A DNA stretch of 64,000 nt from an uncultured Bacteroidota bacterium. Lineage in GTDB: Bacteria > Bacteroidota > Ignavibacteria > Palsa-1295. The notes below the pieces were generated by a model. It made no database searches, had not been told where the DNA came from, and saw only the letters and a list, made by a program, of their open reading frames with translations. Positions 4,312 through 64,000 of the stretch are shown here, piece by piece. A program made the translations under genes and the position numbers. The stretch spans positions 1,681,533-1,745,532 of the forward strand of contig OY969726.1 in the NCBI GenBank assembly GCA_963702215.1, written 5' to 3'. Position 1 is the first letter of the stretch. Each line of letters begins with the position of its first letter.

Positions 4312-5442
4312 CTATTGCTTTGCCAGTTCCGCCATCGCAAGCAGAAACGCGCCGGTTCCCCACCACCACTCGCCGGTCGAAAGCGATTTGTAATACTCCA
4401 CCGTGCCCGGCCATGTGCCTTCGGAGACGCCCGTTACGCTCCCCTCAGAATCCACCCTCGACGCCAATGCGCGCGCACCCAGCGTAACAAGGTTCATTGG
4501 CCCTCTGTGTTGAATCACTCCCAAATTCTGCGCCTTTTGAAACGCAAAAACGAACATCGCGGAAGCCGAAACCTCTTCATAACTGGAACTATCATCGAGA
4601 ATGGTACGCCATAGGCCCTGGGTGGTTTGCTCGCCGGCAATGGCTCCGGCCAGCCGCTCGAAAATGGCAAGCAAATTCTTGTAGAGGGAAGTCTTCCGAT
4701 CTAACAATGGCAGAATCTCGGCCAGGGTCATCATGACCCATCCATTGCCGCGTGCCCAGCTTCCCTCCGATCTTGCCCCTCCATGATTTTCTTCGCAATG
4801 AATAAAAAATGGCTTCTCGCCATCCTGCAATCGTTCCAAATGGAGAACGATTTGCTTCACCGCTTCATCTTCCCACGGGATGCCCAGGACAGGCCCGAGC
4901 TTCGAAAGCACCACGGCAGAATAATAGACCGTGTCAATATAAATATTTGGCAAATCGACATTGTGCAACAAGATCCCCTCACCATTGCGCAAAGCCTTAT
5001 CGCGAATAAAATCGTAAATCCCGCGCGCGGTGCCGAGAAGTTGCATTTGGAACTCCGGGAACTCGCGGATGACATCGGGATAGAGCAATCCGAAGCTCCA
5101 CGAGCCGCAAAAATAGTTCACGGGGACACCCTCCGCCAAATGAAAGGCCAGCCATCTTCGAAGATGGTCGCGCACCTTCGGATTATTGTCGATCTCCAAG
5201 CCGCGTAGCAAGCCGTATATCGCGAGCGATTGCCCCCAATCCGTCGATTGCGATTCCGGGCGATGACGTGCAACGAAGGACTCGCTCACTGTGCGAATTA
5301 GGGATAAAGGCTGAAGGGAAGAATTCCCTCCCTTTTGTATCCCGGTGCGCTTTGCCCTGTGCCCTTGACGCTTACTTCTTTCTGGCATTTGAGACAATTT
5401 GGCGCGCGCGATTTTCGATAACGGAGAAATCTCCGGCTTCAA
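4312..5442 (-). CDS. glycoside hydrolase family 105 (unsaturated rhamnogalacturonyl/glucuronyl hydrolase, YteR-like)
   Basis: 376 aa with GH105/GH88-type motifs (...WARGNGWVMM...; six-hairpin fold signature). The start is ambiguous: 5442 overlaps the eda stop by 70 nt, and the alternative start at 5388 still overlaps eda by 17 nt. Confidence 0.75.
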   Translation of the reverse strand: MKPEISPLSKIARAKLSQMPERSKRQGHRAKRTGIQKGGNSSLQPLSLIRTVSESFVARHRPESQSTDWGQSLAIYGLLRGLEIDNNPKVRDHLRRWLAFHLAEGVPVNYFCGSWSFGLLYPDVIREFPEFQMQLLGTARGIYDFIRDKALRNGEGILLHNVDLPNIYIDTVYYSAVVLSKLGPVLGIPWEDEAVKQIVLHLERLQDGEKPFFIHCEENHGGARSEGSWARGNGWVMMTLAEILPLLDRKTSLYKNLLAIFERLAGAIAGEQTTQGLWRTILDDSSSYEEVSASAMFVFAFQKAQNLGVIQHRGPMNLVTLGARALASRVDSEGSVTGVSEGTWPGTVEYYKSLSTGEWWWGTGAFLLAMAELAKQ

Positions 5443-6007
5443 TATCGCGATCGGTAATCAGCGGCGTTCCCACTCCGGTTGCGGAGGCGCCGGCCTCGAA
5501 CCACTCTCCGACGTTTTCGACGGTCACGCCGTTGGTTGGAACGAAACGAATATCCGGGAACGGGCCGCGCAGCGCGCGGATGTATTGCGGGCCGAGCCCG
5601 GCGAGCGGAAAGAGTTTCACGAAATCGGAACCGGCGGCGGATGCCTGCCATGCTTCGGTCGGAGTGAGCGCGCCGGCCATCGAAGCAACATCGGCGGCAT
5701 CGGCCACGGCGAGCATATCAAGATCGGTAACGGGGCTAACAAGAAACTTCGCGCCGCTTTCAACAGCTTTCGTTGCCGCTTCTACGCCGATTACGGTTCC
5801 GGCGCCGACGAGCACCGCGGGAAAATCCTTTGCGATGCGATGGATCGCTTCACTGGCGGCGCGCGAGTTCATCGTGATCTCGATCGTTTTGATCCCGCCG
5901 CGCAGCAACGCTTCAATCACCAGTTCGATCTTCTCGGTTCGTTTCAATCGCAGCACGGCGAAGACGCGCTCCTCCAGAATTCGCTGAATGGTAGTCTCTT
6001 TCTTCAT
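5372..6007 (-). CDS. eda: 2-dehydro-3-deoxyphosphogluconate / 4-hydroxy-2-oxoglutarate aldolase
   Basis: 211 aa KDPG-aldolase fold (..VLRLK.., GAGTV.., FVSP.., KLFPA..). Confidence 0.85.
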   Translation of the reverse strand: MKKETTIQRILEERVFAVLRLKRTEKIELVIEALLRGGIKTIEITMNSRAASEAIHRIAKDFPAVLVGAGTVIGVEAATKAVESGAKFLVSPVTDLDMLAVADAADVASMAGALTPTEAWQASAAGSDFVKLFPLAGLGPQYIRALRGPFPDIRFVPTNGVTVENVGEWFEAGASATGVGTPLITDRDIEAGDFSVIENRARQIVSNARKK

Positions 6008-30267: not shown

Positions 30268-31056
30268 CTACCACCCCCGGTGCCGAAGCCAGATCGCGTA
30301 TTGCGTGGGCGTCAGGATCACTTGTATGGTAAGGGTTAGTTCCGTCCGGCACGTTGCCAGATCGTTGAAGAAGGCGGTGCGGAGCGGCAGCGTCGCACTT
30401 TCGTAAAACGCTATAGCAGAATCGAGTTCGATGCGCGCACTATCGCGAGTAATCGTGCCCGAATCCATCGAGGCGACAATTGCGGCGCGCTGCACGCGGA
30501 ACGTATCGCGATAGGGTGCCAGCCGGACGGCGAACGAATCAATTGCGGGCGTTGCGCAATCTAAGAATGAGATCATGGCGGTATCGATCTCGCTCTTCTC
30601 GATCTCGGTCAATCTGAGCGAATCAGTCCAGTCCTCCTCGTGATCGCTGATATAGACGCCATGATTGTGCTTGGAACCCTTCACGAATTCGTGGATGTGG
30701 TTGTGATCGCCGTAACCGTGGCCATTCTTTACATACTGCACGATGAACTTGTAGTGGGGATCGTTATCGCCGTCATTCGCATCGTGGAGCGACTTGAGAT
30801 AATCCTGCTCATCCAAGAAGAAGGAGTAATCGACATCGTCCTCTGTGTCATTCAGGATGTAGAAGTCATCGGCATCGCCATTCGGCGGGAGCGTGAAGAA
30901 CTCGTCCAGCGTGATGGTGTTCGTGGTTGTAGCTGTTGCGGGTTGTGTTGGATATTTCGTAGCGCACGAAGAGAGTGTGATCGCGGCAAAGGCAACCGCG
31001 AAAAGCGCGACGGAAGAATAGCCCGCGCGCTTATGGATGAGTAACTGTGATCGCAT
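30268..31056 (-). CDS. lipoprotein with a His-rich motif
   Basis: The lipobox 'LSSC' follows a signal peptide. The protein contains 'NGHGYGDHNHIHEFVKGSKHNHG', a possible metal-binding segment. Confidence 0.5.
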   Translation of the reverse strand: MRSQLLIHKRAGYSSVALFAVAFAAITLSSCATKYPTQPATATTTNTITLDEFFTLPPNGDADDFYILNDTEDDVDYSFFLDEQDYLKSLHDANDGDNDPHYKFIVQYVKNGHGYGDHNHIHEFVKGSKHNHGVYISDHEEDWTDSLRLTEIEKSEIDTAMISFLDCATPAIDSFAVRLAPYRDTFRVQRAAIVASMDSGTITRDSARIELDSAIAFYESATLPLRTAFFNDLATCRTELTLTIQVILTPTQYAIWLRHRGW

Positions 31057-31166
31057 AAGAGTGAGTGTTCGTTAATATTCCGCCTGTTTTTTTAGATTCA
31101 TTCGGCGGCCGGCGGGGAGCAGTGCAAGTAGCGTACCGTTGGCCAGAAAGTCCGTATTTTGTACAG

Positions 31167-31514
31167 ATGAAACTACCGAATGCAGAGCAAGCCATAGTCA
31201 TGCTTGAGAAACTTGAAGGTTATTGCCTTAATCCGGGACACGAGAAAGGCAAGCACAAGGCCCGGGTCTTTTGGCGAGCACTCGGGATTGGCCGGGAGCA
31301 CTCATTGCTGTTGAGAACGGTTCTCCTCGAACGTGCCGTGACCGCAGATGCGATCAAGATCGAGTCGAACAGATTCGGAGATCATTATTTCGTTGATTTC
31401 ATCTTGGAACACGAGGGTAAAAAGGCGGAGATTCGTAGTAAATGGACTGTTCGAACAGGTGAGAATTTTCGTCGGCTTGGAAGCTGTTACGTTAAGAGAA
31501 GGATAAAGGAATAG
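31167..31514 (+). CDS. DUF6883-like protein (upstream partner of a two-gene module)
   Basis: '…KLEGYCLNPGHEKGKHKARVF…GDHYFVDFILEHEGKKAEIRSKWTVRTGENFRRL…'. The family assignment is from memory. The start was chosen at MKLPNAEQ; the ORF extends to 31065. Confidence 0.5.
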   Translation: MKLPNAEQAIVMLEKLEGYCLNPGHEKGKHKARVFWRALGIGREHSLLLRTVLLERAVTADAIKIESNRFGDHYFVDFILEHEGKKAEIRSKWTVRTGENFRRLGSCYVKRRIKE

Positions 31515-31516
31515 AT

Positions 31517-31741
31517 ATGGTGGAAAATCTAAAATTGCTGGATGTCGTCGCATTGTTGGAAGACGTTCCCGAACTCAAGCTCCACCGCGGAGAAGTTGGA
31601 ACCATTGTGGAAGAATTCGAGGACGGTTCGGTTGAAGTCGAGTTTGCAGACAAGCGAGGCGTGGCATACGCTTTCGCGGATTTACCAAAGAGCAAGCTCT
31701 TGGCGCTTCATACGGTAGATGTGGCGGAAGAGGTAGCGTGA
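31517..31741 (+). CDS. DUF4926 domain protein
   Basis: 74 aa with 'LLDVVALLEDVPELKLHRGEVGTIVEEFEDGSVEVEF', the characteristic DUF4926 architecture. It starts 2 nt after the upstream stop. Confidence 0.65.
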   Translation: MVENLKLLDVVALLEDVPELKLHRGEVGTIVEEFEDGSVEVEFADKRGVAYAFADLPKSKLLALHTVDVAEEVA

Positions 31742-31962
31742 ATACCTCAATCAATGAATTAGACGTGGTAGCACTCCTGGAAGATATTCCAGAGGACAAA
31801 CTTGTTCGCGGGGATGTTGGAACTATTGTGGACGATTCCGGAACGGGCCTCTATCTCGTCGAATTCGCCGACCGGTACGGACAAACCTACGCGATGCCTG
31901 CCTTGCGCGCGGAACAGTTCCTTGTGCTGGATCACATCGATAATGAGAAGGTGGAAGTGTAA
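31738..31962 (+). CDS. DUF4926 domain protein (tandem paralog)
   Basis: 74 aa with 'ELDVVALLEDIPEDKLVRGDVGTIVDD…YLVEF'. The GTG start has a GTGA overlap with the previous stop. Confidence 0.65.
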   Translation: MNTSINELDVVALLEDIPEDKLVRGDVGTIVDDSGTGLYLVEFADRYGQTYAMPALRAEQFLVLDHIDNEKVEV

Positions 31963-32451
31963 AATTTACTTCAACCTATGGAATGGATGAAAGTTTGTAA
32001 GGGTGACTAAGATTCAAGGTCTCAATCCAGATTCTAATATGGCTCTGTATTTGATAGTAACAGAAGGCGAAAACGTATATCACGAAGTGGTGCCGTTGAC
32101 TGCGGGGTGGATAGTGCAGCGCGCGTTTCCGTTTCGAAGACTTAGACGCCCTTATTTGTGGATGATGCTGAACGAGCCTCTTCAAGGTTCAGCATCAATA
32201 TTTAAGGCCGGTCGCTGGAAAGAATCTTTGTGCTGTCCCGTGAGATGAATCGCGGACTGCATCTGTTGAGATCGTTTCCCATCGAAGTGGAAGCGTGGGT
32301 GCAAACTAATCCCAATGCCTTATTAGACGATTTGCTCGAAACCAAACTTTGCTTGGTGTCGGGATGCTGACTAACAGGGCAGATGATGTTTCTTCAATGA
32401 GGAGTTGGCTAGAAAAGCACTCTTATTGAGTTAGCACAGGTTTTCCTCCAA

Positions 32452-34182
32452 TCAATTCTTCGAACTGATTTCCGTTCGAATAAGCTTTCCATTCGTCGGA
32501 ATCCGCCTATTCACCGTCCCATTCCGATGACCCTCCATCATCTCCCGCTGCTCCTGATGCAGCAAACTCGCCCGCACAAATTCGCGGAAGATGGGATGCG
32601 CCTTCGTGGCGCGGCTTTTTAGTTCCGGATGGAACTGCACGCCAATGAAGAAGGGATGCGCTTCGCGTTCCAATTCGATGATTTCCACCAAGTTCCCATC
32701 CGGCGAAACGCCGCTCATCACCATACCTTTGTCCGAGAGCAGGGCGCGGTAAGCATTGTTCACTTCATAGCGATGCCGATGCCGCTCGGTGATAAATTGA
32801 TCGCGGTAGGCGCGGTTGGCGATCGAGCCGCGCTTGAGGATGCACGGATAACTTCCCAGCCGCATCGTCGCGCCTTTGGTTTGCACTTGCTTTTGTTCCG
32901 GCATGAGGTCGATGACGGCGTTCGGCGTTTTCTTGAACTCGCTGGAATTCGCATCCTTCAGTCCGCACACATTCCGCGCATATTCTATGACAGCGCATTG
33001 CATTCCGAGGCAAATCCCGAAGAAGGGAATTTTCTTTTTGCGCACGTATTCGAGCGCCTTGATTTTTCCTTCCACGCCACGGGAACCAAATCCCGGAGCA
33101 ATGAGCACGCCATCGATTCCCTCGAAATAGGAGTCGATCTTCTGTTTGGATTCCAGTTCTTCGGAATTGATCCAGACGACCTCTACTTTCGCATCGTTCT
33201 CCGCTCCGGCATGGACAAACGCCTCACTGATGGATTTATACGCATCCTGAAGCTGAATATACTTCCCAATCATCCCGATGCGCACCGATTTTTTCGGATG
33301 CTTTACGCGCTCGACAAACTTTCGCCATTTGGCGAGATCGCGCTTCGCCGTCGTTGGCAAGCCAAGCTTCTCAAGCACGATCCCATCGACATTCTCATCG
33401 GCGAAGGTAAGCGGAACTTCGTAAATCGTTGGCGCATCGCGCGCTTCGATGACGGCGCGCGTTTCGACGTTGCAGAACAGCCCGATCTTCTCGCGAATCG
33501 CTTTCGAAAGCGGCTGCTCGCTACGGCAAACAAGCACGTCCGGCTGAATCCCGATTTCGAGGAGCGTCTTTACCGAATGCTGCGTCGGCTTTGTTTTCAG
33601 TTCCCCCGCGCTCGCGATGTAGGGAACATAGGAAAGATGAATCGTGATGCAATTCTTCTTCCCAACTTTCATCATGAGCTGGCGAATCGCTTCTAAGAAC
33701 GGCAGCGATTCAATATCGCCTACCGTCCCGCCGATTTCGCTGATGATGACATCGAAATCGCCGGACTTCGCAAGCTGCGTCATGCGGCGGCGGATTTCAT
33801 CCGTGATGTGGGGAACTACTTGCACGGTCGCGCCCAAGTAATCGCCGCGCCGCTCCCGCTGGATGACTTCGTTATAGACCTGCCCGGTCGTCGTGTTGTT
33901 GGCGCGGGTCATGTTCACATCGAGGAACCGCTCGTAGTGGCCAAGATCGAGGTCGGTCTCCGCGCCATCCTCCGTCACATACACTTCGCCATGCTGGTAC
34001 GGCGACATGGTTCCCGGATCGACATTGATATAGGGATCGAATTTCTGCACCGTCACGCGCAGACCGCGTGATTTCAGCAACAGACCGAGAGAAGAGGAGA
34101 CGATTCCCTTTCCGAGTGAGGAGACCACCCCGCCCGTAATAAATATAAACTTTGTCTGCTTCTTCGCCTTTGCTTTCGCCAC
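32452..34182 (-). CDS. pyrG: CTP synthase
   Basis: 576 aa with an N-terminal synthetase domain ([13 protein letters not shown]) and a C-terminal GATase domain (…GICLGMQ…). Confidence 0.95.
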
Positions 34183-34292
34183 TCTAAATTACAAAATTAC
34201 GACCGCACACACGATTGCGCGTCCACGATTGACCGGGACGTGAACGCGGAAAATGGGAAGTAGGTGCGCGAGGGGCAAATTATGTCGTAAAT

Positions 34293-34635
34293 TTGTGTCG
34301 CCTGATGGTGATTTCAAAAGACGCGACGATTCCCGTTGAGAAAATTCGAGACTATCTCCTGAAATGGATCGAGAAGGATGATAAGTCCGGATATTTGAAA
34401 CACGCGGGATATTCTAGTGAGAATTACCAGCAATTAATCGATGATATTCGGGAGCAACTTCTGCCGGCCGAGGCCGTGTTGCAGGAACAAAGGCAGGATG
34501 GAGATCTGTATAGAATTCGAGGCCGCCTTCGAGGACCAAAACGGCCGGGAACTTCCAGTAAGAACCGTTTGGCTTGCGAGCGAAGGAGCTAAACCACCTT
34601 TTATCACGCTTGTACCGGATAAGGAGAGAGGATAA
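34293..34635 (+). pseudogene. DUF6883-like gene disrupted by a single-base frameshift near 34520
   Basis: The N-terminal frame (34293..) reads '…IPVEKIRDYLLKWIEKDDKSGYLKHAGY…QDGDLYRI'. The conserved C-terminal block '…EFEAAFEDQNGRELPVRTVWLASEGAKPPFITLVP' is in the +1 frame (ORF 34441..34635). Both halves align to the intact copy at 31167..31514. Confidence 0.5.
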
Positions 34636-34880
34636 TGACCTACGAACTCTACTCACAAATTGCACTTACAGGGGAGATCCCGGAGCACGGCCTCAGGCGT
34701 GGCGATATTGCTCGTGTGGTCGAAAAAATCCCGCCGGAAAGTTCCGATCCCACATCCTATGTGCTTGAAGTGTCTAACGCACTCGGTGAGTCCATGAACG
34801 TCATCATCGTGAAAGCCAACCAGATTGAGCCGCTGCAAAACGACGAGTATTTCTCCGTGCGGCACATGGAGGCCGCGTAG
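34635..34880 (+). CDS. DUF4926 domain protein
   Basis: 81 aa with 'IALTGEIPEHGLRRGDIARVVE…YVLEV'. TAATG overlap with the upstream partner, and an AAGGAGAGAGG Shine-Dalgarno. Confidence 0.6.
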   Translation: MTYELYSQIALTGEIPEHGLRRGDIARVVEKIPPESSDPTSYVLEVSNALGESMNVIIVKANQIEPLQNDEYFSVRHMEAA

Positions 34881-34971
34881 ACCCGTTGCGCGGTACATTC
34901 GGGAAGGAATTCGGCTGGATGCGTGGAGGTAACATTACTTAGGGCGCCGAAGAATAGGAAGTATTTAACTT

Positions 34972-35382
34972 ATGAAATTCTTAGTGATGGTTGCAACCCC
35001 GTTGGCGTATTTGGTGATGTTATCATCGCCCGTCATGTCCCAAACTATTCGGGATGCCCATTACAATGTCGAATTTCAAGTGAGCATAGACGGGACGGTG
35101 AAGGACGCCCATTACAACAGCTACTGGCATATCAAGTCGGACGGAACTATTCGGGATGCCCATTATAATACGATTGGTTACCTCAAGAATGGCGTGGTTG
35201 AAGATTCCCATTATAACACGCTCGGCCACGTAAAAACGAATGGCGACGTTCTGGATGCCCATTACAATACGATTGGTCATCTTAAAGACGATGGGACGGT
35301 TCTCGATGCGCACTACAACACCATCGCGCACGCGCCCGGGATTCGAAAGGAATGGACCGCCGCCCTTCTTTTCTTTTTCTGA
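34972..35382 (+). CDS. secreted protein with six tandem ~17-aa 'DAHYN' repeats
   Basis: Signal peptide (MKFLVMVATPLAYLVMLSSPVMSQ) followed by the repeat DAHYN(x)2(IG/..)(x)3-4(D/N)G(T/V)(V/I)x, six times. It lies in a locally lower-GC region. Confidence 0.55.
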   Translation: MKFLVMVATPLAYLVMLSSPVMSQTIRDAHYNVEFQVSIDGTVKDAHYNSYWHIKSDGTIRDAHYNTIGYLKNGVVEDSHYNTLGHVKTNGDVLDAHYNTIGHLKDDGTVLDAHYNTIAHAPGIRKEWTAALLFFF

Positions 35383-35530
35383 ATCTAAAACTCGTTTTTT
35401 CCTTCCCCCGGAGAATGTGTCGCCGTCGCGCGAGCGCACATAGTTCCCGGTATTGAGGGCGAAATCTTTATTCCGCCCGGCAGGTTCGCAAGCTGGCGGG
35501 TGTGGTGCCCGCCGAGGGTTTTTACAACAC

Positions 35531-35568
35531 AAGCTCCGTTTGCTATGCAGGCGGAGCTTTTTATTTTT
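35531..35568 (+). terminator. rho-independent terminator
   Basis: AAGCTCCG-N12-CGGAGCTT followed by TTTATTTTT. A second GGCGGG-N7-CCCGCC hairpin lies just upstream. Confidence 0.55.
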
Positions 35569-35571
35569 ACA

Positions 35572-36123
35572 ATGAATACAACAGAAAATATCGTTGAGAC
35601 TTACTATCGGGTCTGCCGAAAGTGCTTTACAATGCAAGACATTAAGGTTCTCGGCGGTAATAATCGGCAATTCGATCTTCTGGCGTTTAGCGTCATTGAC
35701 CAAACAGCATTTCATGTCGAATCGTCCATCTCGATAACCGACGCTCGACCACTTCGAATGAAAGATGAATTAGGAGTAATTGAATCCCTGAAAAAGAAAT
35801 TTTTTGGAGACCCACCAATTCGCCAAGGAGCTCGGACGGATCACGCTAGGGGAATTAATTACGGAGATAAAATTGACTACATGTACAAATCCTTAGGTCT
35901 TAACCCGCAGAAGATCGAGAGAGTCTGTTGCAGGTGGGCTTTTTACGATGAAAATGAGAAGTTAAAGTCCTTTCTCAACACTAATAAAATAATTCAATTG
36001 AGTTTTAGGGACACAGTTCTTCCCGAATTGGAGCAGACCCTTACAACTGCTCACTACGAGAATGATGGCATGAGAACAATAAGTTTGATTCGCGAGTATA
36101 GGCGCCAAACAACCACGGCATGA
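35572..36123 (+). CDS. hypothetical protein (low-GC island)
   Basis: Start MNTTENIV, immediately after the terminator. The upstream part of ORF 35500.. spans that terminator and is rejected. No confident family. A speculative PD-(D/E)xK nuclease resemblance rests on 'FDLLAF…HVESS' and is weak. Confidence 0.45.
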   Translation: MNTTENIVETYYRVCRKCFTMQDIKVLGGNNRQFDLLAFSVIDQTAFHVESSISITDARPLRMKDELGVIESLKKKFFGDPPIRQGARTDHARGINYGDKIDYMYKSLGLNPQKIERVCCRWAFYDENEKLKSFLNTNKIIQLSFRDTVLPELEQTLTTAHYENDGMRTISLIREYRRQTTTA

Positions 36124-36658
36124 TTTTTTTGAGCGGGTTTTTATTTCGTATTTTTGTGATATGAAAAAGACCAAGGGAGTCGAACCAAAATTGAGGAACC
36201 CAAATTCGCTTACGATTTGGCGAATTGGCCGAACTATAGTCCTGAAGGAACTGCACAAAAAAGTGCCGACCTGCAGGCCGATTCGTCGGTTTATTGATTG
36301 CCCGGGGATCGGAAAATTGAAGGTTGTGTCCTCGTCCTATCGTAAGCCCGATAAAAGCACACCATGCTGGCATTGGGGCTGGGGCCTCGTTCGAAAAAAA
36401 GAGAAAATCGCCTTCACACACGTTGTGTGCGTTGCACTCGACAAAAAAAAACAAAGTGCACAATTATTATATTATTAACCGAGCCGATGTTAATGCCTTT
36501 CCCCAATGGCCGCGCCATTACAGCGAAAAGCATTCCCTGATTATCGCCGACGGAACTAAACCTTGCGCAACCGAATACGATGAGCTTGCACGGACCAAAG
36601 TGAAGAATGCAAAGCCTGGAACTCTTTTTCAGACATTCAAAAATTTGGAGGCACAATC

Positions 36659-41993: not shown

Positions 41994-42898
41994 GGATTCC
42001 AGTTCTTGCAGCCTGCATAAAGAATTTCGAACAGTTAGACGAGTCGTTACGCTGAACGCGGCCGCAGTTCACGAATGTTGTCCATGCGGAGCAGCCGTGC
42101 TTAGTACGGAGAGAGAAATTGGAACCATAACAGTGGAATCGAACTCACGCGGGCGGTTCCATCCGAGTGCACTTCGCCGTCCCCCGGCGGGCTTCGTAGC
42201 GTCCGGTTGTCGCAGTGCGGTTCAGGCGATGCCTGCACTCCGGCATGAAATACGGTCAGTTGAAAACGGACCGTGCAAAGAGTAGTCGATAAAACTGCAA
42301 CGCCGATAAGGTTCCCATTCCGTCCCATCGAGCCACCAATGATCCTCGGAGGCTGGCTGAGCCGGGGAGGCCGGATCGATTCATCCGGCGAAGCGCTGCA
42401 AAGAACGAAGACGGCATTAAGCGGAAGCATCCGGCTTAATAAAGAATCAGTGTGCAGTTCAGGCCGTGCCGCACATCGGGATCAGGAACACACCCTGCTA
42501 CTTTGGTGCCGCAGCAGCATGCACCATCGAGCCATGAAGATACCCAAAATCAGAATCGAAGGTTCCGGTAAATGAAAGAAATTTTCATAAAACTCCTGGA
42601 GGAGAAAACCAGGACAGATCGTCAGACTATTCGGTCATGACAAAAGCACGAGTTCGATTCAACTTTCGCGTAATCACGTTGGCGGTAAGATGAGAAGCGT
42701 AGTTTAATCATAAATTTTGGATTGAAAAAAGCCTAAAAATCGAAGAGAGCCGCTTGGCGTGGATAACAATGCAGAACGACTCCAAGCAGAGCGCATTCAT
42801 CCAATAAAACAAAGGTCGAAACATGAAGAGATTTATCCACATCCGGATATGGAGGAAACGCAAATCACCGGAATTCAAACAAAACATAAGTTACCAAA

Positions 42899-43900
42899 TC
42901 AAGCCTCGGCAGCGTCCTCTCGCTTCTCTTTGAAAAGCTCCAATCGTTCGACACAACGCTCCACCGAAGTAATCTGCATCAGTTCCGAACGGACCCGCGA
43001 ACCGCCGTGAACTTCCCGCAAATATCCAGCATAATGCTTTCGAAACGCGAAAACACCCCGCTGTTCGCCGCGAATTTCGCAGGAATGAAGTAGATGACGA
43101 ACGCACAGCTCAATGCGCTCCTCGATGGTTGGCTGCCGGTAAGAGCCCGTTGCCCGAAACTCCTTAATTTGCTGGAAAATAAAGGGATTTGTGATGGCTC
43201 CGCGCGCGATCATCACGCCATCGGCTCCGGTTTCTCGGAACGCGCGCTCCGCATCTTCCGGAGTTTTTACATCGCCGTTCAGGAATACGGGAATCGAAAC
43301 CACCTGCTTAATGCGAGGAATCCAGCTCCAATCCGCCTGGCCATTGTGACCCTGGGAACGGGTGCGGCAATGAATAGTAAGCGCCTTCGCTCCAGCCTGC
43401 TCCAGCATTGGGGCGATATTCAGAATATTGATCGTCTCATGGTCCCAACCCAGCCGGGTTTTCACTGTAACAGGTAATTTCACAGCGTCGGCAACTGCAC
43501 GGACCATCCGCTCCATTCGAGGCGGATCCTTCAATAATCCCGCACCGGCGCCGTGCCCCACCACGTTTTTCACCCAGCAACCGCAATTAATGTCGACGAA
43601 ATCCGGCTCGGCTGCTTCGGAAATTTGGGCGGCTTCTCGCATCACATCCGGATCGCCGCCATAGATTTGGATGGCAACCGGTCGCTCTTTTGGGTCAGTC
43701 ACGAGCTTTTTGACCGATTTCGCTGCCTGCCGGATCAGCGCCTCGCTTGAAATAAACTCGGTGTAAACGGCATCGGCACCGTGCTCGCGCATGATGAGCC
43801 GGAAGGAAACATCCGTGACGTCCTCCATTGGCGCCAGCAGCAAAAGCTGCTTCGGATGATCGCTCATCCGGCCAAGCTCCAAATTGCCGATCTTTACCAT
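42899..43900 (-). CDS. dus: tRNA-dihydrouridine synthase
   Basis: '…LLLAPMEDVTDVSFRLI…' FMN-binding TIM barrel. 333 aa. Confidence 0.85.
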   Translation of the reverse strand: MVKIGNLELGRMSDHPKQLLLLAPMEDVTDVSFRLIMREHGADAVYTEFISSEALIRQAAKSVKKLVTDPKERPVAIQIYGGDPDVMREAAQISEAAEPDFVDINCGCWVKNVVGHGAGAGLLKDPPRMERMVRAVADAVKLPVTVKTRLGWDHETINILNIAPMLEQAGAKALTIHCRTRSQGHNGQADWSWIPRIKQVVSIPVFLNGDVKTPEDAERAFRETGADGVMIARGAITNPFIFQQIKEFRATGSYRQPTIEERIELCVRHLLHSCEIRGEQRGVFAFRKHYAGYLREVHGGSRVRSELMQITSVERCVERLELFKEKREDAAEA

Positions 43901-59312: not shown

Positions 59313-62300
59313 TTACTTGCTCAGGGTCAGCTTCTTCGAGAGCGTGACGGTCTGTCCGTCGGCGCCGGTGGCTATGAGTTCATAGACATAGCTGCCGTTG
59401 GCGAGTCTCGAGAGATCGAGCGTTACGTTCTGCTCGCCCGCGCCATAGCTCGCGTTCGTCACCGGAGCGCTCACCACCTTGCCCGTCACATCCATGACGC
59501 GCAGTGTAACTTGCGAGGCTTCCGGAAGCGTGAAGCTCACGTCCGCCGCGCCACTCGTCGCCGGGTTCGGATAGCTCTGGCCTAGCGTGAACCCAAGCTC
59601 CGCCGCATCGGGGCCAAGTTCGATCGCGTTCGAATACGTCTTCGCCCCGCTCTGATCGATCGCTACCACGCGGTACGTGTAGCTCTTCGTCAGGTCGATC
59701 GTTGCATCCGTATAGGCATACTGCGTCTCGGTTATCGGCCGCACTGACGGAACCGAGTTTCTCCCACATCGGCTGCACGTCCGCGCCTGAGGCTGCGCCC
59801 GTACCCGGAACCATTTGTTCCACGTCGTACTGCGCCACATCCTTCTGCTGCGCGATCTGCCAGGAGATCAGGGCGTTCTGGCCCACATGCTCCGCCGTCG
59901 CATTCACGAACTCCACCGGAAGGATCGTACCCGCATGGCTGCGGAAGAAGGCGAAGGCTGCCGCCAGCGTCCGAGTCGTGCCGCTCGTCGTGTCCCCAAA
60001 CCCGCCCGGTATCGTTTGCACCGGATCCGACCAGTCGAACCCGTAGAATACCGTGTTGATCGTCGGGTTGTAGTACGTCGTACCCGCGCCGGAGTCCGCC
60101 GAACTGTTCGGATGCATCCGGTACGTATAGGCATAGCCCGTTACTTCCGGTCCAACTAACGGCGTCGAGAACGACGGTTTCACAACGTCCGGCGATGTCG
60201 AGTTCAGGCTGTCCGGATATTTCCAGAACGCCGGCTGCTGACCATCGATCCAGTTGTGGTACACCGCGCCGTCCATCATCGGATCGTTCTGCACGAACCG
60301 CGTGTGCATGTACGATTGCAGCCATTCCGTATCCGTCACCGGGATGAAGCCCGGCGCGTTGTTCGGCATGACGTAACCGTTATAGTAGGCAACGTTCTGA
60401 CCGGCTATCACCATGCTCTTCTTCGCATAGTCACGGCCCTGCTGCAGGTAGCGCTCCACTTCCTGCGTCTCCTTGAAGGAAAGACCACCCTGACCCGTCA
60501 CCTGACCGTAGGACGGGGCGATCGTCGGATCGCCGCTCACCCAGACCAGCGTCCACCACGGGGTGTAGTCGATGTCCGTCGAATCCGAAAGCCCGTCCGG
60601 AGCATTACGATCCAGCGTATCGAACGGTACGCCCAACCGGGTCAGCGCAAGCTTCACCGAGTCCAGATTCTGAAGCCCAAAGGCCGTCGCACCGTTGTAG
60701 CTTACCAGCACCGCGTTCTGCTTCAGCAATACGTGGAAGACCTTGACCTGCGAATTGTTCACATTGTCCTGATCCGTCGGTACGCTCACCGTTAGACGGA
60801 ATACGCTCTGCGATACCGTGTTCGGGTTGAGGGTCGGACCCTGCCAGACTACTTGCTGCGTCTCGCTCACGTCCCAGTTCATTGCCGACGAGTTCGAGTT
60901 GAAGATCGTCGTCCATGGGCCGCCATTGATCGCCTGTTCCACCTTCGCGTTCACCGTACGGCCAAAGACCGACTGGCTCGAAAGGTTCTTCACCTGCGCC
61001 GTGATCCACAGCGGATTCTCCGTCGTCACCAGCGAGGTGTCCGATGTCTCCGAGAAGCCCGCTGGCTGCGTGATCGACATCACCGCAAGGTCGTTCGTGT
61101 ATTGGAATCCATCCCATTCGTCCGCGCCGATATCGACCGACTGCGCGCTCAGACGCTGGTCGCCATCGAAATCGCGAGTCTGCGTCGCCGTCCCGAGCCA
61201 CGCCCCATTGCCCGAGGCCGCGCTTTCGATATACGTCAGCGCAGAAGGCATGTGAAGCGAATCCGTTCCAACCGCGAACCGGGGATCCCCTGTCAGCGAG
61301 TGCAGATCCTGACCCACATACGAACGCCAGTCGTTCAGCGTGCGGAAATAACGAGTCTGGAAGACCGTACCATACCGGACGTCATATTCCACTAACGAAT
61401 CGAATACGTTCGTGCCGCGAAGATCGAACAGGTTATAATCCGAACTGATCGCGCTCGCAAACGGTCGCGGAACCTCCAGCCAGTAGTTCGAATACGGACC
61501 CGAGCCGGTGTTCTGCAAAATGTTGTTCCACAAGAACACGTGCTTCGCGAACTGCACCTTGATATTGGCTAACGCGTTGTTCGTCGAGATCGAGTTGTTG
61601 AAGATCGAATCCTGGTCCGCAGAATACTGCGAGCCCGCCGTCGTCATCGCGATCGGGTACGAGCCAAACGTCCCTTCTTCTTCTTCGCCACCGCCGGCCT
61701 GAAGATCGAAGATCATGTTGTTCGTGATGCGGTTCTGCGTTTCGATCGGTAACGTCGATTGATCCCCAGGGCCCCCATTGCCGACCTGGTAGATCGTCAC
61801 CGCCTGCTGGATCGCTACACCATAGGCATCGCCACCCACCGAACGAATGTCGTGAATACGGTTGGCATCCACCCAGCAGCGAACCACGTTGCCCGCCGTG
61901 TCCGGAACTACGCCAAGCGTGTCCGTAACCAGCGTCAGAGGAACCGTCGTCTGAGGGCTTTCGATGCCATAGACGTTCCAGTTCATCCCCGTCGAACCCG
62001 CGTTCGCCGAGTTCACGTTCGTGATCTCGTTGTGCGATACCGTCAGATCCTGTTCGTTCGTGAACGAGATACCCGCAAACGAGAGCGGATCGCTCGAGGT
62101 CCCGATCGTATTCCGGGTGAACGTGTTCGAATTGTTACGCCACACGATATACTGCTCCGAGCCTAAGTTGAACATGTCGTGCAGCCCGTGATCGTACAAG
62201 CCATACTTCGCATTGCCAAGCTCGCAGTTGTTCACCACGATATGGTTGATCGGAATCGTGTCGTGAACCAACTGAAGGTAAATCGACCGGTTCTGCTGGT

Positions 62301-64000
62301 TGTAAATGCGAATCGCCGATGAGGAATCGCTCGTAAAGTTACCATTGCCGTGAAGAATCAAATCCTTCATCGTGAGATGGCTCGAGCCTTGCTCAATATC
62401 GAAGATCGAACCCGCGTTCGTCTCGTTATCCACGATCGTCAGGCCTCGCTTGGCCGGCTCCGCCATCAGTTTGTCCGGAACCGGTACGCCCAACGGGTTA
62501 TACCCTTCGAACGTCATGTAGCCGCCAAACAAATCGCCAAAGTAGAAGCACGATGGCTGACGGCCCGTGAATGTAATCGTCGGATGTACGCCCGGCTTCG
62601 GTTCCCAGATCACCGGTGTCGTCGGGGAAAGCTGGAGGTGCCGGAAGTCGATCGCCGCGTTCGGTGAAGAGGCGATGTCCGTCCCGTTCTCCGTGTAATT
62701 CGCATCCGTCAGGATGAGGTGAAGCGTATCCGATACGCCGCGGAAGGCAATCGAATCCGCCGCCGCGTGGATCGTTTGGAACCGCTGGCCTACACCTACA
62801 TAAATGTTCCCCTTGAGCTGCGGAATGATCGAAAACTCCGAACATGCCGTGTCGTTCGTGTGATCGCCATCGCCCGGATACTTCGCGATCGCGCAGATCG
62901 TGTAACAGCCCGGCGGCAAGTTCGAAATACGGTACGTCCCATTGACTGACGGGAAGTAGAACCGTACGTTGCCCTGATCGATGTTCAGTTCCGGTATCGT
63001 CGAGTCCGATATGAAGACCGGTGTCGTGGGATTCGAGCAGCTATAAATACGAACTTCCGTCGGTACGTCGAATAAATCCGAGACGCCCAGTGAAGCGAAT
63101 AGTGCACCCGGCTGCCACGTCGTCTTCTCCGGCTTCTCTTCATCCGGCTGTGGATTTACGATCGAAGTCGCCGCCGCATCGTAAATCGGACGAACGAGCA
63201 CCTGGCCGCATACCGTGTCATCGCCGGGTAGTTGGTCGCCGGGCAAGATCGAGATGCCGCAAATCTTATGGATGCCGACCACCGTCGGAGTCCATTGCTC
63301 CGGAAATGTCGTATCGTAATACGGGCCTTTGCCAGGACCCTGACCTGCCTGCGAGAAATCAGAACTGCCATCCGAATTGCCGCCGAGCGAACCCGTCGGC
63401 CAATTCGGTATCCAAAGCGTATCGCGGTATTCAACCGCGCCCGATGGATCGCGAATCACTGCCGTAAGCGGTACATTCGTTTGGTTCGCCGTGCCCGTAT
63501 TGCGGAACCGCATATCGATTGGCGTTGCGATAGCGATTGGAGTCCGGTCCGATGCGCCCAAACCCACCGGTGGACTCAGAATAGCCACAGCCTTGATGTC
63601 GTTCGGAGGCGAACAAATCCATTCGTTCGTCGTCGTGTTGTTCGACGGATCCTGATCCGCTGTCGGCTGTAAATTATAGACGATCGCCGTGTCCTCGTAA
63701 ATATTATAACCGTAATACAAGATTCCGTTGATCGTCGTATCGTGAGGTCTGTAAGGCGGGAAGGAAACCGTGCCCGTCGAAAACGCACCCGGTAGCGTTC
63801 CAGAAGGCGGAACCGTGATCGTTTGGTTATACACTTCCGGACCGTTCACGATCGACATCACCAAATTCACTTGAAGCGAAGTCGGAATTAAACGACCCTG
63901 GTTCGTAATCTGAACCCTCGGCGTAAAGACGGAGTCCTTCGCCACTAAGTCCTCGTTCCCGGGAGCCGTAATCGCATCGGCCGAAAAATCGTAATTCCAC
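59313..64000 (-). CDS. giant beta-helix (PbH1 repeat) surface protein with an Fn3-like domain and a T9SS C-terminal sorting domain; 5' end beyond the window; apparent frameshift near 59760
   Basis: The frame of ORF 59380..63945 is open to the window edge, so the GTG at 63945 is not a real start. It has many PbH1-type repeats (…NNCELGNAKYGLYDHG…). Its last ~120 codons are arginine-rich nonsense. The +1 frame (ORF 59313..59840) instead encodes an Fn3-like segment (…TQYAYTDATIDLTKSYTYRVVAIDQSG…) and a T9SS CTD (…GQSYPNPATS…VTLSKKLTLSK). Confidence 0.7.

Follow-up and report, generated by a model that had tools for sequence, protein, structure and literature searches.

The window analysed here, a 64,000-nucleotide stretch of contig OY969726.1 from an uncultured Bacteroidota bacterium, carries two small gene modules in which a gene of the Pfam family DUF6883 precedes one or two genes of the family DUF4926. 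In the second of these (module 2), the upstream gene is divided between two reading frames and the downstream gene is intact. The features of module 2 and the gene that separates it from module 1 are as follows; L001 is an independent short-read contig from a sister strain.

34305..34538, plus strand: putative DUF6883 (BECR-Tox3-type) toxin gene, frame A, codons 1–78 (MVISKD...RGRLRGP), identified by Pfam and identical to the L001 allele
34538..34541, plus strand: run of four A, the frameshift site, with one extra A (L001 has AAA)
34540..34635, plus strand: DUF6883 codons 79–109 (NGRELPVRTVW...FITLVPDKERG) and TAA, frame B, identified by Pfam, AF2 and the L001 translation
34590..34592, plus strand: premature TAA that closes frame A 17 codons past the shift, from the ORF list and the sequence
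34621..34626, plus strand: AAGGAG, Shine–Dalgarno-like, 8 nt 5′ of the DUF4926 ATG, identified in the sequence, with a putative function
34635..34880, plus strand: intact DUF4926 gene, 81 aa, putative immunity protein or antitoxin, identified by Pfam and AF2
32452..34182, minus strand: pyrG (CTP synthase), a core gene between the modules, divergent from module 2, identified by Pfam

The frame A open reading frame as listed starts with a TTG at 34293; we took the ATG at 34305 as the probable true start because the homologues all begin with MVI or MII. Frame A alone scored 40.8 bits against the Pfam DUF6883 profile (PF21814; 110 positions, gathering cut-off 27 bits) and covered profile positions 6–82. 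Frame B, which ends in the TAA at 34633–34635, covered positions 75–108 at 12.3 bits, below the cut-off. When one A was removed, the repaired protein of 109 aa scored 62.7 bits over positions 7–108. The profile coverage thus bears out an initial annotation of this DNA, which had placed the two halves of the gene in different frames. The same annotation had described the DUF4926 gene as intact, coupled to its neighbour through TAATG and preceded by a strong Shine–Dalgarno sequence, and this description also holds: the protein scored 34.6 bits against PF16277 (gathering cut-off 29.1 bits) over positions 1–56 of 57, its ATG shares one base with the frame B TAA in a stop–start overlap, and AAGGAG stands 8 nt upstream of that ATG. 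In the source genome, the annotated product for the broken toxin gene is a 95-aa protein (P0009).

We infer a toxin–immunity module of two genes here, chromosomal and stand-alone, with the toxin gene upstream. The module 2 toxin is a stand-alone protein of 109 aa with no fused delivery domain, encoded beside pyrG (Pfam CTP_synth_N, 431.7 bits, plus GATase). No delivery domain, secretion-system neighbour or phage context was found at either module of the window, and GC content gave no island signature. Promoter and terminator scans across 30900–35100 returned no more than shuffle level. The sequence TAAATTTG at 34288–34295 precedes the DUF6883 ATG by 9 nt and fits the Bacteroidota-type −7 promoter consensus (TAnnTTTG); a transcript started from it would have a very short leader. 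The gene that immediately follows module 2 (34972–35382) encodes 136 aa, with repeated DAHYN units and a Pfam match to Bflower_2 (5-fold beta-flower protein; 93.5 bits). Elsewhere in the window, about 0.9 kb at ~42000–42900 lacks a convincing ORF, Rfam match or tRNA.

Module 1 (31167–31962) contains one toxin gene and two candidate antidote genes:

31167..31514, plus strand: intact DUF6883 gene, putative toxin of module 1 and distant paralogue of that in module 2 (Pfam, 92.4 bits)
31517..31741, plus strand: first DUF4926 gene of module 1 (Pfam, 75.2 bits), identical in the short-read contigs L005 and L006
31738..31962, plus strand: second, tandem DUF4926 gene of module 1 (Pfam, 79.6 bits), overlapping the first by 4 nt

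The source annotation starts this DUF6883 gene at a later ATG, giving a 104-aa protein (P0033), and the tandem DUF4926 proteins are 50% identical to each other. Module 2 had initially been described as a second copy of this module, with both halves of its upstream gene aligning to 31167–31514. That relationship is much more distant than described. BLASTP returned no alignment between the two DUF6883 proteins at E<=100, and a MAFFT alignment placed their identity at 20%–22%; the DUF4926 proteins of module 1 are 24%–28% identical to that of module 2. As judged from sequence comparison, the two modules are distant paralogues, linked only through the Pfam profile. We also considered a recent duplication of module 1, which was ruled out because the DUF6883 copies give no BLASTP alignment.

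Structure prediction connects the repaired DUF6883 protein to known tRNA-cleaving toxins. The AF2 model, for which a 131-sequence alignment was the input, had a pLDDT of 93 and a pTM of 0.85, and comprised three helices (residues 11–18, 28–32 and 38–52) followed by a four-strand antiparallel sheet (58–63, 66–76, 82–91 and 98–104). The best PDB match in Foldseek was the toxin chain of 6CP9, the CdiA-CT/CdiI complex of Klebsiella pneumoniae 342, with which it shares the helices-then-sheet order (TM 0.70, probability 1.0), and the other top matches were 6CP8 and 6VEK (CdiA-CT of E. coli 3006). The toxins of 6CP9, 6CP8 and 6VEK are BECR-fold tRNases, and the topology of helices followed by four strands is that of the toxin, not of the immunity protein (PMC9086364). 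The arrangement that characterizes BECR RNase toxins, with N-terminal helices on a four-strand antiparallel sheet, is present in the model and predicts RNase activity for DUF6883. Sequence similarity to 6CP9 is undetectable, and a PDB sequence search with the DUF6883 family profile gave chance-level matches only. The window protein also differs from the Klebsiella system in standing alone rather than at the tip of a CdiA filament, and in having a small, SH3-like partner rather than one with the CdiI fold.

The distribution of the domain across proteins likewise supports a toxin. When 1.84 billion representative proteins were searched with a profile, 7318 DUF6883 relatives were recovered. Among the best 150 of these 7318, the majority were stand-alone proteins of ~110 aa; in a minority the domain formed the very C-terminal end of a longer protein. 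DUF6883 was found C-terminally on an RHS-repeat protein (P0319) and an eCIS-core protein (P0310), and it was joined to DUF4926 in a single chain in two proteins (P0265 and P0293). Predicted viral structures contained the same domain in MuF-like "minor capsid" proteins (TM 0.72–0.82). A 2026 preprint describes DUF6883 as BECR-Tox3, a colicin-like toxin with MuF fusions and with downstream DUF4926 as its immunity protein, a pairing that its relevant passages present as a computational prediction without experiment (bioRxiv 10.64898/2026.08.28.747851). The toxin–immunity pairing is already known as a prediction, and the window locus is an ordinary member of this group. Our results share with those passages the Pfam families, the toxin-first order, the predicted colicin-like BECR fold and the MuF fusions, which were recovered here as well. 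The RHS, eCIS-core and single-chain DUF6883–DUF4926 fusions found here are absent from the relevant passages of the preprint; in comparison with the systems described there, the window copy is interrupted, belongs to a subfamily without the common His residues and has a lineage-specific Pro at position 98.

Conservation within the family points to candidate active-site residues. The active site of CdiA-CT from Kp342 consists of K/Y/H/R/T (PMC9086364). The near-invariant residues K13, Y17, R98 and S/T101 of DUF6883 resemble K157, Y160, R252 and T255 of 6CP9, a comparison that comes from the conservation pattern and not from residue-level superposition. The window protein has K13, Y17, W89 and T101. 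Arg98, a candidate catalytic residue by analogy with the Kp342 active site, is found in 123/130 family members and 23/27 subfamily members, and this position (window 34596–34598) is Pro in both the window and L001. We note that Pro98 may have weakened the toxin already, prior to the frameshift. If so, the frameshift would have been neutral, and it would be mistaken to view the locus in terms of a "retained antidote".

For the DUF4926 partner, AF2 predicted a five-strand SH3-like barrel (pLDDT 79). PF16277 was its sole Pfam match, and no DNA-binding domain or match to a DNA-binding fold was found in it. Canonical autoregulated type II toxin–antitoxin systems, by contrast, have antitoxins with an RHH, HTH, AbrB or Phd/YefM domain. 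Since it has no recognizable DNA-binding domain, DUF4926 appears closer to the immunity protein of a polymorphic toxin than to an autoregulating antitoxin. The pairing itself was highly consistent: the family alignment located 31 genome loci, and in 28 of them, from Ignavibacteriota/Kapaibacterium, Planctomycetota, Proteobacteria and other taxa, DUF4926 was immediately downstream of DUF6883. Of the other three, L007 runs into the end of its contig, L017 has a frameshifted DUF4926 and L036 is degraded. PF16277 matched all 31 of the proteins scanned, comprising 28 downstream ORFs and the three of the window. At position 47 of DUF4926, where Phe is otherwise invariant within the subfamily, the window protein has Ser. 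F47S was considered as a sign of decay and rejected, as this position varies (V, L, T, A) in the wider family.

DUF4926 presumably binds and neutralizes the DUF6883 toxin. The initial proposal of an upstream toxin and a downstream antidote is well supported by inference from the CdiA-CT-like fold of the model, the C-terminal position of the domain on RHS, eCIS and MuF proteins, the synteny in 28/31 loci and the two-domain fusions, and it agrees with the prediction in the relevant passages of the preprint (bioRxiv 10.64898/2026.08.28.747851). We consider it quite unlikely that the pair is not toxin and antidote at all, with DUF6883 a non-toxic RNA- or protein-binder, DUF4926 serving some other role and any asymmetry in gene loss without meaning. 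In favour of that view, both families are known from computational prediction, including in the passages of the preprint that concern them, and a literature search found no experimental report on DUF6883 or DUF4926. PHROGs, PADLOC and NCBIfam gave no match for either protein. Additionally, two His residues that most family members have (H23 in 102/130 and H28 in 90/130) are absent from the whole Kapaibacterium-type subfamily to which the window protein belongs. However, the fold agrees with that of proven tRNase toxins, the domain sits at the C-terminus of proteins that deliver toxins, the downstream partner is strictly conserved and sometimes fused to it, and relatives are found inside clusters of other toxin–antitoxin genes (BrnT/BrnA, PemK).

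The lesion that divides the DUF6883 gene of module 2 is a single base. The frame switches in the A-run at 34538–34541 (ggaccAAAAcgg), between P78 and N79, and the extra A splits a GPNG motif that is invariant in 27/27 aligned subfamily sequences. The indel had initially been placed near 34515–34525; comparison with L001 moves it to the A-run. L001 is a 2368-bp Logan contig from run ERR11594399 that encodes exactly the same DUF4926 protein as the window. It is 99.87% identical to window positions 33938–36306, with two SNPs and one indel, and this sole indel in 2369 aligned bases is the A-run, which is AAA in L001 and AAAA in the window. In L001, DUF6883 is a continuous 109-aa frame whose sequence equals that of the repaired window protein, and the extra A is the sole difference between the two toxin genes. 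An exact-pattern scan of JGI metagenomes for both alleles (AAA or AAAA) found neither, suggesting that the organism is absent from that collection.

The consequences for the two proteins are predicted to differ. The extra A changes the frame past residue 78, with a stop 17 codons on. This replaces strands beta3 and beta4 (residues 82–91 and 98–104), so that two of the four beta-strands are gone, and also deletes W89 (invariant, 130/130) and the conserved positions 98 and 101. Because both strands are replaced by 17 unrelated residues, the truncated product should not fold and should be harmless. DUF4926 appears to retain its own ribosome-binding site (AAGGAG) and could still be made.

The locus had initially been read as selective decay of the upstream partner. 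With a one-base lesion in a gene that is otherwise identical to the intact L001 allele, there is no gradual decay to be seen: the extra A either broke the gene very recently or was introduced during assembly. We give an even chance to the extra A being a real, very young loss-of-function allele that segregates in the population, and we read it as young and segregating because the sister strain represented by L001 still has the intact gene. The competing explanation, for which we put the likelihood somewhat short of even, is an error of assembly or base calling, in which case the organism has a continuous 109-aa DUF6883 and nothing has been lost.

Several observations are consistent with an error. 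The source is one contig of 3,581,381 bp and is therefore probably a long-read assembly, and the residual errors of long-read assemblies are mostly 1-nt indels. The sole independent assembly of the locus, the short-read L001, has AAA and an intact gene. The broken toxin gene has no further changes and so bears no sign of time spent as a pseudogene. The frameshifted 95-aa product has no record in other assemblies, although this exact look-up of P0009 is weak because the source contig itself was also missing from the results. Additionally, a long-read MAG among the relatives (L017) has a comparable homopolymer indel, in DUF4926, and a second one-base frameshift is present in an unrelated gene of the same 64-kb window.

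This second frameshift affects a large gene on the minus strand. An ORF of 1521 aa (59380–63945) ends in R/G/E-rich out-of-frame residues, and the genuine C-terminus of the protein is in an overlapping ORF on the same strand (59313–59840), which matches Por_Secre_tail, a sorting domain for type IX secretion (41 bits; cut-off 27). The frame switches near 59735–59750 (~59740), where, as at the DUF6883 site, there appears to be a single surplus base in the window. Contig L038, which adjoins this frameshift, stops 45 bases short of the affected gene. A codon-usage frame scan flagged further switches, which on inspection proved to be normal boundaries between genes or ORFs chosen on the wrong strand; the switch at ~59740 was the sole additional one to hold up.

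Other observations fit poorly with an error in the source sequence. The A-run is just 3 to 4 bases long and the change is an insertion, which differs from the classic sequencing error in long homopolymers. Across ~4.7 kb of other window sequence, comparison with three independent short-read contigs (L005, L006 and L038) gave two SNPs and zero indels. Most ORFs of the window are long and unbroken, and two broken genes among ~60 are within ordinary pseudogene density by our estimate. Finally, toxin-side frameshifts also occur in relatives, including one (L022) with contig names of short-read style. A 1-nt sequencing error had been named as the alternative from the start, and we find little to choose in likelihood between such an error and a real, recent null allele.

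A third way to account for the two frames would be programmed +1 ribosomal frameshifting at CCA-AAA-C, joining them to produce a regulated, low level of toxin. The sole point in support is that the shift required is +1 and falls in a short A-run. We find this scarcely credible and ruled it out, as the two-frame layout is not conserved in homologues: the aligned homologues are each in one frame, the sister allele (AAA) is in frame, and the frameshifts of relatives are elsewhere, at codon 5 (L041) and ~codon 54 (L022). A stimulatory element was not evident either.

Lesions in relatives provide context for the window allele:

L041 (GCA_025450795.1): 1-nt deletion in codon 5 of DUF6883, gene not called; DUF4926 intact
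L022 (MAG with MEGAHIT-style (k141) names): 1-nt deletion in a C-run at ~codon 54 of DUF6883; DUF4926 intact
L039 and L040 (two long-read contigs from one sample): DUF6883 absent; DUF4926 directly behind a BrnA/CopG-type gene
L019 (same MAG as L022): DUF6883 at 4965–5300 with two compensating frameshifts, ~17 residues scrambled, frame open; DUF4926 intact
L036: both genes lost
L017 (long-read MAG MFD04540.bin.1.132): DUF4926 at 5327–5527 frameshifted in an A5/G4 run (TTTAAAAAGGGGATG); DUF6883 intact

At the place corresponding to the missing gene of L039 and L040, the gene order in L002–L004 is BrnT-BrnA-DUF6883-DUF4926. In L039 (3702–4246) and L040 (3708–4243), DUF4926 is 77%–80% identical to that of the window, and the junction lies at the stop–start overlap; these orthologues are inside toxin–antitoxin clusters (BrnT, PemK). 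The lesion in L017, a G-run deletion, is the sole antidote-side case. It is probably a homopolymer error, an artefact being more plausible because an active toxin beside a broken antidote is hard to reconcile with viability, and it indicates that errors of this kind do reach genes of these modules.

Loss on the toxin side with DUF4926 kept was seen at five loci (six including L019), compared with one locus for the reverse. With so few cases, and with genes of 330 and 246 nt, five versus one is not significant (p ~0.2 by our rough binomial estimate). The comparison of orthologous loci therefore agrees with the initial expectation insofar as toxin-side losses recur (L041, L022, L039 and L040), but only as a tendency of the family to lose the toxin first, which the window allele fits. 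We also note that the contigs of L002–L004 end ~100–120 bases past the DUF6883 stop, inside DUF4926, and that those of L042–L044 begin within DUF6883. Such repeated contig breaks at the modules suggest strain variation or multiple copies.

The module resembles several known kinds of system without coinciding with any of them. Like type II toxin–antitoxin systems with the toxin first (higBA, hicAB), it consists of small, adjacent, translationally coupled genes with an RNase-fold toxin. Among its relatives, loss of the toxin with the antidote kept recurs, the pattern known as an orphan antitoxin, and relatives also have BrnT/BrnA and PemK neighbours. The same toxin domain is C-terminal on polymorphic toxins elsewhere (RHS, eCIS, phage MuF-PBECR), and a DUF4926 gene retained without its toxin resembles the orphan immunity genes of such systems. 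The two window modules differ from polymorphic toxin systems in having no delivery domain, no neighbouring secretion system and no phage context.

Taking the extra A as a real null allele, we propose the following history of the locus. DUF6883 is a protein of ~109 aa with the Barnase/EndoU/Colicin/RelE-type fold of tRNA-cleaving toxins, which the coupled, SH3-like DUF4926 protein would bind and neutralize. Insertion of one base (A3 to A4, 34538–34541) would shift the toxin frame after residue 78 and yield a harmless product, and DUF4926 would still be expressible from its own ribosome-binding site. Before the null allele arose, the toxin had probably been weakened by Pro in place of the near-invariant Arg98, and toxin loss here would follow the family tendency, toxin first. 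A more adaptive account is also conceivable, in which Kapaibacterium-type DUF4926 is kept as orphan immunity against the RHS and eCIS effectors of neighbours and against phage MuF proteins, and toxin-first loss is selected for. We regard this as doubtful; if it is true, the window allele would be toxin-first loss caught in the act.

Should the extra A prove to be an error, it would serve, with the second frameshift at ~59740, only as a warning about the quality of the assembly. If it is real, the window allele would represent the first step in the decay of a toxin–antidote pair, with intact and null alleles in one population, and would add small support to the idea that antidote genes outlive their toxins. 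The comparative by-products are more useful for understanding the family: the fold and architecture provide evidence that DUF6883 is a delivered-toxin domain, and there is also evidence for DUF4926 as its physical partner.
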